Shown here: in pieces, positions 8,842 through 57,670 of the stretch | Numbering within the stretch: position 1 is the stretch's first letter | Layout: each line of letters opens with the position of its first letter | DNA from: Eledone cirrhosa | Lineage: Eukaryota | Direction: 5' to 3' | Assembly (NCBI GenBank): GCA_964016885.1 | Contig: OZ024745.1 | Span: 41,354,001-41,418,000 of the forward strand | Length of the DNA stretch: 64,000 nucleotides | Position numbers and translations under genes: made by a program | The notes under the pieces: model-generated | The model's database searches: none | What the model was told of the DNA's origin: nothing | What the model saw: only the letters and a program-made list of their open reading frames with translations

Positions 8842-8907
8842 TATTTCGTTATATATATTTCTGGGATATCATATTAAAAATATGTTATGCCTTCCTCAGA
8901 CAAAATA
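8842..8907 (-). ncRNA. Type I hammerhead ribozyme (family B)
   Basis: Minus strand: tattttgt-CTGAGGA-stem II-GAAA-tatata-TA-acgaaata, with an 8-bp stem I. Confidence 0.75.
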
Positions 8908-9516
8908 CAATACATAAGCTGTTTTATAAATAATTAGTGACATACCTTGTAATAATGCAACTTCCTTTTAAAAAGTTGAGTTGGTAGTTGAAAATTGATG
9001 TATGACTATATATATATATATGCACACATATATATATATATATATTATATATATTTATATATATATATATATATATTTATATATATATATATATGTATAT
9101 ATATATATATATATATGTGTATATATATATATATGTATATACATATATATGTATATATATATAGTATATATATATATGTATATATATATTAACCAAATAT
9201 TTCAAAATATTAACCAAAACGCTGTAATATTCTTGAAACCAATTTTAGTAACTAAATATGCTTCTATGGCTGAAATATTTTATTCGGGCGTCCTTGATTT
9301 ACCACCACTTCCATTATACGTCACGATCACAGATACGTACGGGAAAAACAGGCCTCTAGTATTACCAGTTTGATTCAAAAAACAGAGCTTTATAGGCATT
9401 AAAACATTCAGACGTAATTGGATTTAGGAACGCTCTTGTTCCAAAAGAAGGATACCGAACTAATAAATAAATATGAAAATACACACACACACACACATAC
9501 ACATATATATATATAT

Positions 9517-10620
9517 AGGAGAAATTATGACCCCGACGGCAGAGCTCAAGCCGTTTCGACGGCTATTTCTGGACTAAAGTAAGAGTTATTGGTAAATAAA
9601 TAGCCGAACTTTTCAAGGGGTACTTCCTTATATGGGGAGATTATAGTTGTCAAGAGGATTGGTCAAATGTGTAGCAGACACAGAAAAGTCTATCATGGAA
9701 GTGGGTGCGGGTTTGGGTGGCTGTACTTGCCTGTAGAACAATAGGGGAGTGGGTAGAGCCGGTCAAGCGTTGAAGGTGAAATCTACACGGCAAATTCTAA
9801 GGAATGTGTATGAAAGTAGGCCAGGGGAGTTAGGAGAAAAAAGGTTTCTTTAGAAAATGGAGAAGGGACGTTATAGAAAAGGTAAATCAAATGAGAATTA
9901 GGGGACAAAGAAAAAATATAATAAAAAAGAATATAATAAAAAATGAGAGAGATATATCAGAATGTAAGATTGGAAAGTGAGAAGTGAAATAAAACAAAAA
10001 CTAAGGAGTCTAACACCGCTGCTATATTTAGTTGGTGCTGCTTTTTCGGCCAATGCTATAGAATGGGTTGCTAGATGAGAATTATTGAAAATTTAGAAAT
10101 GGGTACTAAAAATTAATACCACATCTCTGGGGTCTAACACAGCTGTTATGAATAGTTAGTATAGCGTAATCGGCGAATGCTATCTGTAAGTTACTGGGTT
10201 GGGGGTACTGAGGCTAAAGAGGCCCGATCGGCTGTCTCAGGGTAGGCGAAAGGGGGAAAAAACAAAGGAACGAACGAGGAAGAAGTTCGGTGGTGGAAAG
10301 AAGTGATAGGAGACAAAGGGAAGAAGAAAACACAGAGGAAAAGAAAAGGGGTACATCTACCTATATAAGTTGGGGTTTTCCCTATCTTATTCGGCAAGTG
10401 GGGTTTTTTCGCCCTTGTCTACCTACCCGGTAAGTCTTCCGCAATCTGTGTTTGGATGCAGTTACCAGTTCATCTTTTACCAGTCCAGAAATAGCCGTCG
10501 AAACGGTTTGAGCTCTGCCGTCAGGGTCATAATTTCTCCTATTACCCACTCTACTACTCTAAGTATTGAGTACTCTGGTGCGTTATGGTCCATCTGGTTC
10601 CTTACCACAACTCCTTTGTT
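9517..10620. mobile_element. Non-coding pseudo-LTR-type element, family C (minus copy plus partial plus-strand copy at ~10480-10620)
   Basis: Homologous to 49562-50810; inverted arrangement; flanked by (TA)n. Confidence 0.7.
9530..9621 (-). ncRNA. Hammerhead ribozyme, U3-A8 core variant (family C)
   Basis: Minus strand: acccc-TTGAAAA-gttcggcta..tagccgtc-GAAA-cggc/gccg-TC-ggggt. Confidence 0.75.
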
Positions 10621-10827
10621 ATATATATATATATATATTTGTAGATAAATGTACCAAAATATACAGTAGTGTCCAATCCGTATGAAGAACTCAATGTAAT
10701 CCAAATATCATGAAAAGAGAAGATGCATTCAAAGATTTTCGATGAAAATCATAGGAAAACAGAGTTAAGATAAATTAATAAAAACAATGAATAAAAACAA
10801 AGAACAAGTTCCTTATATTAAAAAATT

Positions 10828-10963
10828 CATCATTTTACGATCGTTTCTAGGATATATATATGTGTGTTGGTATGTATATCATATTGATCTATGTAAAAAT
10901 ATTACAAACTATCAGAGGAAATATACATACCTTCACATATATATGCTGTCTTCAGAAATAATG
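10828..10963 (-). ncRNA. Hammerhead ribozyme with ~100-nt stem II (family D, inverted copy)
   Basis: Minus strand: cattattt-CTGAAGA-long stem-GAAA-cgatcg-TA-aaatgatg. Confidence 0.78.
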
Positions 10964-55452: not shown

Positions 55453-56190
55453 ATATTAAGACCGGGGGAAGAAAAAAATGGCTTCACTTGTGCTTTCAAC
55501 AAATTTATTTTCTTCACAAAATCCCAAAAGAATTTTTTTCCGGATTAGAAAAAATTTTTTTTTTCTTAAAAAAATTTTTTTTTATAACCACATATGTGTG
55601 TGTTGAACAAAGGACTAATTTTGGGATGGACGTAGAAAAATTCTTCAGAAAAAAAAAAAAAAAAATTGTTTACAAGCTTGGCAGGTGCGGTTTGTCTATG
55701 ACCATCTTCGAAACAAAGGAATACTAAAAGCTTTTTCCCCTGAATAAAGGAGTTTTTCGAGAATGACCGGGGCAGGCCGCACTTGCTACATTTCTCCCCA
55801 CCCAACCCTACTCACTGTCTCAACTCATTACTGCTATTAACATTTTTTCAACACACCTACACCCCTACACTTATTAAAGGGGGAGAAAAAAAACCCACCA
55901 CACCACAGACATGCTAAATCCCTATATATAGAAAAACACACCACATACACATCAGTTTGACAAGCCGACCTCAGCGTGAAAGGTCTTTCTAAAAACGAAA
56001 CAATACCTCCTACGTTAACCAAGAACTCCTAAGACCTAACCAAAAACCAACAACTTAATTCATAAAAAAATGTTTATTAAGAAAATATTTTTTTATAATC
56101 CAGAAAAAAATTATTTTGGGATTTTGTGAAGAAAATAAATTTGTTGAAAGCACAAGTGAAGCCATTTTTTTCTTCCCCCCTGTCTTAATA
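55453..56190. mobile_element. Decayed element with ~120-bp inverted ends, probably a PLE remnant
   Basis: 55453-55575 is the reverse complement of 56063-56190; the sequence is rich in homopolymers. Confidence 0.5.
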
Positions 56191-56247
56191 TATATATATA
56201 TATATATATATATATATATATATATATATATATATATATATATATAT

Positions 56248-56832
56248 ACGACCGACCATGAGACAGGATGTATCCCAGTACATCCTGTCTCATGGTCGGG
56301 TCGTTGGCGACTAAACTGGCAACCCCACCAAGGTTTCTTGGTGAGGAGGTTGACTTTGGACATCATGCAGGACTAAAAACAAAACCTGTCAAAGGGCAAA
56401 GGAGTTCTTAAGAGTTTTGCCATCCAAAATCACCGGGAGAGATGACACCTTAGCCTTTGTCAAGGTAGAATTCTAGGAGAAGGAAAACTCTGATATAATA
56501 CCTGCAAGCCTGATGGTATCCAATGATGTTGACTTGTTCTTCTTTATGGTAAATATCATCTTGGTTAAGAGAGTGGGACAGGCTTTGTGCAGTGCCTTTG
56601 CTCACTATAAAAGCTTCACGGCACAGGCATTGCTTTATATCTGGAGATCTCTCTGCACTTGTCGTCACATGGTACCACTATGTGTCAATAATTGTCACAA
56701 GTGTAGTGTTTGTACCAGAGTTTTCAAGTTGCTGGCTGGACTAAAAAGTCACACTCGCTCAGCGCATCGGTAGGGGTTCTCCTACATGGATATAAAGTAG
56801 TGGCCGTACTCGAAAACGAGTAGGCAGCCACC
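56248..56832 (+). mobile_element. Non-autonomous RTE-derived element, copy 3, with a foldback 5' end
   Basis: Colinear with 43504-44115; encodes CSVCTRVFKLLAGLKSHTRSAH. Confidence 0.75.
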
Positions 56833-57154
56833 ATATATATATATATATATATATATATATATATATATATATATATATATATATATATATATATATAACT
56901 GTAACATAACCACAAATGTACAAAGAATACACAGCGAAAGGATAAGATCTTTTCGCTTGTAACATCGATGGACATTAGTGCGAGTTCTTCGGAGATATCA
57001 GTCACAAAAACCGAACACAGACATATATATCTTTGAATTACAGGTGCCACATTGGTTTACCCCACCTATACACACATACATGTACGTCTGGAGATGAAAA
57101 CATTTCCCGTATATCTATTTTCCTCTCATTAGTGAATGTATATATACATATATA

Positions 57155-57670
57155 TATAATTTTCGGCGAAAGCAGGGAAGTGCGTGGCTCTGATGAACGC
57201 CAATCAGCATGAAACAGACTGTCAGCTTCTCTCCTTTCGTTCGCCGAAAAGAAGTAAGTGACATAGTCACTACTTTAAAACTCATATCGTATGGTCTTCT
57301 AAATGTTTTTAATTAAACATACGGTATGTTGCCAAATATACTATACATACATTCATGTATACATCGCTATTTCAGAGTACCAATCCTAATACCTAAGTTT
57401 TGTTGGACCGGCAATCGCTCTGTATAATCAGCTCCTCATTATTACTGGAATTCTATAAGAATCCAGCTTCTATAATTTTCGGCGGAAGCAGCGGTGTCCG
57501 AGGCTCTGATGAACGCCAACCAGCGTGAAACAGACTGTCGGCTGCTCTCCCTTCTTTCGCTGAAAAGAAGTAAGTGACATAGTCACTCCTTTCAAACTGA
57601 TAGCGTATGGTCTTCTAAGTGTTTTTAATTAAACATACGGTATATTGCTAAATATACTATACATACATTT
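57155..57670 (+). mobile_element. Tandem 316-bp non-coding monomers (family N); HHRs at 57186-57227 and 57502-57543
   Basis: ggct-CTGATGA-acgc/gcgt-GAAA-cagactg-TC-(a/g)gct. Confidence 0.85.

Follow-up and report, generated by a model that had tools for sequence, protein, structure and literature searches.

The DNA analysed here is a 64,000-nucleotide stretch of the genome of Eledone cirrhosa (contig OZ024745.1, positions 41,354,001 to 41,418,000; hereafter the window), which is 31% GC, contains (TA)n tracts throughout, and belongs to an assembly of 3.0 Gb. Its long non-repetitive frames are solely pieces of Penelope-like elements (PLEs), and its repeats are arranged as tandem units and inverted, truncated copies, as is usual in the layout of PLEs. 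Distributed among these repeats are hammerhead ribozyme motifs of several families (Table 1), in which the stem III segment between the GAAA and the UH of the core is often self-complementary. In an initial annotation of the window, the differing palindromes were read as a code restricting activation to copies of the same family. The present analysis of sequences and predicted folding favors, with a probability of roughly three in four, another explanation—that is, the palindrome would be the pairing surface of a double-hammerhead formed between identical copies in one transcript, with family specificity a by-product and not a selected code.

Judged from their sequences, the window motifs are minimal type I hammerheads of PLEs and of tandem derivatives of PLEs. 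All 11 stem III segments of the initial annotation are present, each flanked by the GAAA and the UH of a hammerhead of type I topology whose stem I pairs, but its list of families was incomplete, with families O (outside the span that it covered) and P left out. The minimal core known from PLEs (CUGANGA...GAAA...UH, or its U3-A8 variant) is present, with the exceptions of the family K motif at 44634 and family P; the topology is of type I with a helix II hairpin, and stem I comprises 4–11 bp. At the base of stem II, family O has an extra nucleotide (9/10.1) and a G10.1-C11.1 pair, family J has a G-C pair without the extra base, and families K, M, I, F, and L have a mismatch. Searching the window against Rfam gave no match at the gathering threshold. 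Assignment of family D to a type II or III motif was rejected, the core lying about 105 nt upstream and stem I having 9 bp. An unusually long stem II region (80–116 nt) is found in several families, including D and L in the window, and at loci L020, L033, and L146.

Motifs of families K, O, G, and P in the window, and of lineages S30 and S47 at other loci, occupy the terminal-repeat position behind reverse transcriptase (RT) and GIY-YIG frames. For the remaining families tested (including M, S29, and S38), no PLE frame was found within 900 nt upstream in the loci examined. The CxCX5C linker of the frame upstream of family G is a signature of the Hydra clade (PMC8557442); this frame gave no match in Pfam. 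Families J, F, and N form tandem non-coding units in the window, each unit with a type I hammerhead.

Table 1. Hammerhead motifs, PLE frames, and other repeats in the window.
Feature	Position	Strand	Remarks
GIY-YIG frame	387–1394	+	upstream of family O motif
Family O hammerhead	1728–1772	+	AGGACT, purine-purine centre
Dispersed repeat of ~200 bp, many copies	3650–3850, 8307–8455, 13245–13435, 30694–30882, 50840–51270		
Family B hammerhead	8842–8907	-	stem III ATATATAT at 8851–8858
Family C hammerhead, U3-A8 core	9530–9621	-	5-bp stem III with GAGCTC loop, 9536–9554
Family C stem III, 5′-truncated copy	10503–10521	+	GAGCTC loop; first core strand absent
Family D hammerhead, long stem II	10827–10964	-	stem III ACGATCGT at 10837–10844
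Broken PLE frame pieces	11865–12596, 53002–53966		
Family D hammerhead	15145–15282	+	stem III ACGATCGT at 15265–15272; long stem II; one stem I mismatch
Family F, three motifs in 523-bp tandem repeat	25054–26182	+	stem III ACTAATTAGT at 25120, 25643, 26166
Family G hammerhead	26994–27064	+	stem III ATGCGCAT at 27048–27055
Family P hammerhead-shaped motif	27380–27415	-	deviant first core strand CAGTTGA; stem III ATATAT
PLE reverse transcriptase frame	27942–29111	-	RVT_1, E 1.2e-10; ~530 nt upstream of family P motif
Family I hammerhead, inverted copy	29098–29155	-	stem III ATGATCAT at 29103–29110
Family I hammerhead, stem I damaged	30270–30327	+	stem III ATGATCAT at 30315–30322
Family J motif, inverted part of insertion	35068–35112	-	stem III ACTAGT at 35076
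Family J, two motifs in 467-bp tandem repeat (35358–36284)	35477–35988	+	ACTAGT at 35508, 35975
Family K hammerhead, truncated copy	39231–39269	+	stem III AGTACT at 39258
Family G motif, inverted copy	39978–40048	-	stem III ATGAGCAT at 39987 (one change)
PLE frame, C-terminal part	40200–41045	+	CxCX5C linker; upstream of family G motif at 42223
Family G hammerhead, 3′ repeat of element	42215–42285	+	stem III ATGCGCAT at 42269–42276
Repeat of ~600 bp inserted in (TA)n tracts immediately ahead of PLE fragments	43500–44115, 46195–46800, 56249–56830		no hammerhead match
Family K motif, second core strand damaged (GGAA)	44634–44672	+	AGTACT at 44661
Family L hammerhead, long stem II	45897–46018	+	stem III ACACGTGT at 46005–46012
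RT frame, then GIY-YIG frame	46763–47773, 47774–48616	+	family K PLE
PLE frame, 5′-truncated	46856–48616	+	family K; RT followed by GIY-YIG endonuclease, with one in-frame stop
Family K hammerhead	48991–49029	+	AGTACT at 49018; ~380 nt behind GIY-YIG frame
Family C motif, inverted copy	49576–49669	-	loop TGAGCTCA; GAGCTC at 49582
Family C motif, U3-A8 core	50621–50714	+	loop TGAGCTCA; GAGCTC at 50690
Family F, two motifs 522 bp apart	54083–54686	-	ACTAATTAGT at 54611; ATTAATTAGT at 54090
Family M hammerhead	55065–55104	+	stem III ACAATTGT at 55091–55098
Family N, two motifs 316 bp apart	57186–57543	+	stem III ACAGACTGT at 57214, 57530

A wider sample of motifs was obtained with a palindrome-blind scan of 161 sequences (1,664,000 bases), consisting of the window and 160 stretches of the same genome, with 864 kb contiguous around the window. 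Matches to the C3-G8 core at a score of at least 7 numbered 192 versus 2 in a reversed control, and those to the U3-A8 core at a score of at least 10 numbered 22 versus 3; thus 214 motifs were kept, against 5 control matches at equal thresholds. When clustered with stem III masked, these motifs fell into 53 groups, which became 58 lineages after manual splits (including that of blast cluster S5, which had chained two unrelated groups); nine were then removed as weak single matches, leaving 49. The members of B/G, f9/f17, and S18 were treated as separate lineages, with the test for shared palindromes repeated after lumping. S22 and S50 look like false matches in other repeats and, not being perfect palindromes, are outside the counts of shared palindromes, while S22, S23, S35, and S39 were retained in the count of neighbors.

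The stem III segment is fully self-complementary in 27 of the 48 lineages in which it has at least 6 nt, as compared with a mean of 5.4 and a maximum of 13 after shuffling of the interiors, and chance palindromes in AT-rich DNA were rejected on this count. Conservation was assessed across 15 families, for which homology searches yielded 126 distinct copies, with pattern-targeted loci excluded and each difference counted against the column majority. The stem III interior differs at 29 of 783 positions versus 801 of 11,751 in the flanks; the corresponding values are 306/4,027 for stem II, 77/1,574 for stem I, and 24/1,386 for the core, the most conserved class. In lineage S2, stem III shows no difference (0/92, versus 24/322 in stem I), with stems I and II changing in a compensated manner while stem III is invariant.

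Searches of the whole genome gave a similar picture for individual families, with tallies counted by eye from the first 100 matches listed, which represent the earliest positions on the first contigs and not a random sample. A pattern leaving the interior open gave 5,189 family J matches, and ACTAGT was present in 99 of the first 100. The clearest case of covariation is S29, whose subfamilies are 76–86% identical and whose stem I is identical: the first 100 of 2,513 matches comprise 82 with ACAATTGT, 12 with ACGATCGT, 2 with ACGATCAT, and 4 others. The center of the B/G segment is GCGC in 39, ATGT in 29, ATAT in 23, and something else in 9 of the first 100 of 73,284 matches; group B toggles between ATATATAT and ATATGTAT (ATAT and its G-U form ATGT) across deep branches of the B tree, and G sits on a very long branch of the B/G tree. 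Overall, conservation of the palindrome within families, with compensatory changes, which the initial annotation suggested testing, is borne out by the count of 29/783 and by the S29 switch, but not in G (6/66), B (7/48), and O (7/72), in which stem III is no better conserved than its own flanks. Taken together with the modeled folding, these comparisons support a role of the palindrome as a conserved dimer interface.

By nearest-neighbor energies (kcal/mol throughout), stem III is unfavorable as a monomeric hairpin in every window family other than C (+0.5 to +5), and perfect palindromes are predicted to form homoduplexes of −8 to −16. When cofolded without constraints, J, K, F, and M homodimers were predicted to adopt a double-hammerhead with swapped stem I; family B approximately reached this fold, and G, N, and O are predicted to fold otherwise. 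Family C, at −5.9, is predicted to be stable as a monomer. Thus, its inclusion among the minimal motifs holds for the GAGCTC loop but not for dependence on a dimer, the U3-A8 core being combined with a 5-bp stem III predicted to form alone. The same prediction applies to the other lineages with a long stem III, S5a and S17 (loci L036 and L023). The loop that family C keeps is palindromic and could kiss or extend into a duplex.

Whether the palindromes also distinguish one family from another is a separate question. A selected code, in which co-resident families carry different palindromes so that only copies of the same family activate each other, would predict that they differ, as indeed they do among the window families; however, such an all-different set has a chance probability of 0.65–0.74 for the eight perfect 6- and 8-mers, and of 0.62 for 11 lineages drawn from 49. 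In the 1.66-Mb sample, ACAATTGT is common to five lineages (M, S29, S30, S38, and S47) with different stems I and II and with no flank similarity save one downstream pair at z=4.8. Genome-wide searches confirmed four of these lineages as large families, with 7,595 matches for M, 2,513 for S29, 880 for S30 (92 of the first 100 with this word), and 230 for S47 (84 of the first 100), S38 being represented by one sampled copy. Furthermore, ATATATAT occurs in B and in S5b (8,506 matches; 95 of the first 100), and two lineages each share ACTAGT (J and S2), ATGCAT (two S18 lineages), and ACGATCGT (D and S29b). Identical palindromes form 13 pairs versus 2.6–3.5 expected, or 11 versus 1.9–2.6 with sister lineages lumped, 2 versus 1.3–1.8 when the four long-stem-II ACAATTGT lineages are lumped as well, and 3 versus 1.5–2.0 when S29b is added. 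Thus, the palindromes differ by family within the window, but family specificity is not supported in the wider sample, reuse being at or above chance. In the distant sisters J and S2 (upstream similarity at z=11), stem I has changed and ACTAGT has been kept, the reverse of what a code predicts, and the S18 pair likewise keeps its palindrome.

In a double-hammerhead, the partner must fit at both stem I and stem III, because stem I is swapped between the strands. Compatibility was therefore scored for 1,806 ordered hetero-junctions among 43 lineages (the 49 less six with poorly pairing segments), at thresholds of our own choosing: at least 4 bp in stem I, and a stem III duplex within 1 kcal/mol of the weaker homoduplex. 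Stem I is compatible in 69 and stem III in 102 of the junctions, such that stem I alone blocks 1,737 and stem III 1,704. Both are compatible in 7, versus 3.9 expected if independent, and hence there is no avoidance of doubly compatible pairs. The palindrome as a discriminator is not upheld, given that stem I alone blocks as many hetero-junctions, that J and S2 share ACTAGT, and that the center of family O is non-palindromic. Restricted activation survives in part: most stem III duplexes across families are predicted to be much weaker than the homoduplexes, but the palindromes are reused, which does not amount to a self/non-self code.

The best cases for a selected code are those in which stem I is shared. 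B and G, which together account for the 73,284 matches noted above, have different stem III sequences and occur 429 nt from each other on one strand (locus L257). S29a and S29b differ, among the pairing strands, in stem III only, and their same-strand tandem pairs among the 100 matches listed never mix types, which is explained by copying of one template. Opportunities for cross-pairing exist as well: of the 136 motifs in the 864 kb around the window, 53 lie within 5 kb of a foreign motif but of none of their own family. No compatibility at both stems was seen among the 48 foreign same-strand neighbor pairs within 5 kb, although at about 0.4% of random pairs compatible, none would be expected. 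There is also a precedent, in the available text of a study of the dimerization initiation site (DIS) of HIV-1, a 6-nt palindrome whose variants lower heterodimer formation and co-packaging (PMC3187697). Against such a code, the S29 switch arrives at ACGATCGT, already the palindrome of D, and the predicted barriers leak: ATATGTAT, the commonest B variant (29/100), pairs with ATGCGCAT of G at −5.2 versus −7.3 with itself, and O pairs with K at −5.2, better than its commonest form does with itself (−2.7). The heteroduplex of ACAATTGT and ACGATCGT is predicted at −7.0, versus −11.5 and −15.1 for the homoduplexes. Overall, a selected code is unlikely, and the palindromes are likely not an evolved family barcode.

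The recurrence of ACAATTGT raises another possibility, namely that the word is constrained beyond pairing—by contact with a protein, by a favored strength of the duplex, or by the kinetics of folding—with lineages converging on or retaining favored words. Five of the 13 lineages with perfect 8-mers use ACAATTGT; the half-site letters, over the first interior positions and beyond, are uneven (25/50; C 25, A 21, T 17, G 8); and the invariance of stem III in S2, beside its compensated stems I and II, fits such a constraint. However, the five lineages, four of which have a stem II of 82–96 nt, may share a deep ancestry no longer visible in the flanks, S29 and B have switched words without loss of copy number, and many other words are in use. 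This explanation is improbable.

Hammerheads are dense in this genome (136 motifs in the 864 kb, or about 1 per 6.4 kb), and most are solitary: a same-family, same-strand partner lies within 5 kb of 41 of the 136, almost all of these in families that form arrays (4 of 86 for the remaining families), leaving 95 without one. These solitary copies would fit motifs that are not mainly dimers in cis but protein-helped monomers, ribozymes acting in trans between unit-length RNAs, or non-cleaving structures of the PLE RNA. The low rates in vitro even of dimers, in the part of the published account available (PMC4209133), and the stable monomer stems of family C and other long-stem lineages are in line with this, as is the spread of family P to 2,302 matches genome-wide despite a deviant core. 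In 89 of the first 100 of these matches, the core strand is CAGTTGA, with positions 4 and 6 exchanged, and no canonical or U3-A8 version of the motif was found genome-wide; the motif occupies the usual PLE position, and it is present at each end of a 3,333-nt element (loci L255 and L256). Either family P has a core variant not previously recorded, or its ribozyme is dead although the family still spread; a literature search gave nothing relevant to this variant. As a general account, however, the non-dimer alternatives are very improbable: self-complementarity through the would-be loop is useless to a monomer, yet it is conserved and compensated, the core is the most conserved class, and solitary copies are expected as dead truncation products.

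The favored explanation, in which the palindrome pairs identical copies, can be set out as follows. Two identical copies in one transcript would pair via the palindrome to give the double-hammerhead predicted by folding, with one copy contributing the 5′ strand of stem I, the core, and stem II to each catalytic junction and the other contributing U16, H17, and the 3′ strand of stem I. Tandem precursors would thereby cut themselves to unit lengths, and solo or inverted copies, which are most of the genomic copies, would stay silent in host transcripts. Since both partners copy one template, any self-complementary word would serve, and one compensating mutation would repair both broken pairs; the identity of the palindrome would thus probably drift by compensatory change, giving rise to family specificity. 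At the level of sequence, the location of the motifs in PLE terminal repeats or in tandem units of 316–523 bp is consistent with this scheme. The preference for homodimers is likely real, according to the modeled duplexes, but a by-product.

Several observations weigh against this explanation. The p-values for conservation overstate its certainty, because the copies are not independent samples, and although the number of shared palindromes was never below chance, strict lumping leaves little power (1.3–2.0 pairs expected). A perfect palindrome is not required, because the abundant family O (22,037 matches; center AA in 77, GA in 19, and AG in 4 of the first 100 listed) has a purine-purine center; its homoduplex is predicted to be weak (−2.7 to −6.8), and it did not cofold into an active dimer. 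In B/G and S29a/b, the palindrome is, on predicted energies, the sole barrier, albeit a partial one. Neutral drift alone does not account for the excess of ACAATTGT. Finally, published PLE dimers are weak in vitro, according to the text available (PMC4209133). In a dimer, the center of O would be a tandem A-A or G-A mismatch.

Arrays of family J elsewhere in the genome reach at least 13 units. Some of the 467-bp arrays consist of two opposed blocks, minus-strand then plus-strand (L022:1848-7223; C1:30831837-30840571; C1:56387558-56397725), a layout that rolling-circle copying of unit-length RNA would give. An assembly artefact was rejected for the repeats, with thousands of copies across several contigs. 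Contigs of four sequencing runs were compared with the J repeat, and no change was found in the J motifs among the matches listed (40 of 50); nothing can be concluded from this, because even the best foreign contig, with 12 changes in 496 nt, would miss the 45-nt motif with a probability of about 0.3.

Dimeric hammerheads of the repeat type are reportedly known since the work of Forster et al. in 1988. In newt satellite 2 and avocado sunblotch viroid, the palindromic stem III and loop III are fully paired only in the dimer (Perreault et al., 2011, PMC3088659); Fig. S8C of that paper is described as listing palindromes for several ribozymes, and the portion of its text consulted contains no statement on palindrome diversity as a partner code. 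In PLEs, minimal hammerheads have been described from metazoan pseudo-long terminal repeats, with type I topology, a short or absent helix III, and palindromic positions 15.2–16.2 and loop 3 (Cervera and de la Peña, 2014, PMC4209133). The sections of that account seen agree with the present families in the many sequence families per genome, the compensatory changes, the U3-A8 variant, the mostly solo copies with some tandem or inverted pairs, and the proposed action as dimers, whereas the stem III segments here extend over 4–21 nt and some stem II regions over 80–116 nt. The statement of the initial annotation that minimal hammerheads cleave efficiently as dimers was too strong, as, according to the same sections, PLE constructs showed low activity even as dimers and trimers. 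The tandem derivatives match animal non-LTR retrozymes as portrayed in the excerpts seen (PMC7229834; 10.64898/2026.07.22.740005), the motifs here being of the minimal PLE type.

Earlier publications thus already describe the motif class, with its palindromic helix III and its many families in a single genome, as well as the dimer model, the last, as far as the parts consulted go, in PMC4209133, PMC6765202, PMC7761336, PMC7229834, and PMC3088659. The comparison of palindromes between families and the consideration of heterodimers are absent from the relevant text of PMC4209133, and no paper proposing a heterodimer or family code was found in a literature search that did not cover Lunse et al. 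(2017) and the supplements of PMC4209133 and PMC3088659, which may bear on it. The HIV-1 DIS differs in that it joins separate genomes through a kissing loop and governs packaging, whereas the double-hammerhead also swaps stem I and its partners are normally copies in cis.

By analogy with the HIV-1 DIS, a switch of palindrome could also act as a new dimerization allele isolating a nascent PLE subfamily when stem I is shared, as between ACAATTGT and ACGATCGT in S29 or between B and G, and be favored where cross-pairing costs the element or the host. This idea is rather doubtful, but if true, it would represent an RNA-level isolation barrier between transposon subfamilies. With regard to the in vivo role of PLE hammerheads, this genome offers useful natural test pairs, with the same palindrome and different stems I in J/S2 and the ACAATTGT families, and with the same stem I and different palindromes in S29a/b and B/G; the very abundant, non-palindromic O and the abundant, deviant-core P provide additional natural constructs. 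They bear on which stem sets partner choice and on whether gating by dimerization prevents more than 100,000 solitary copies from cleaving the transcripts of the host.

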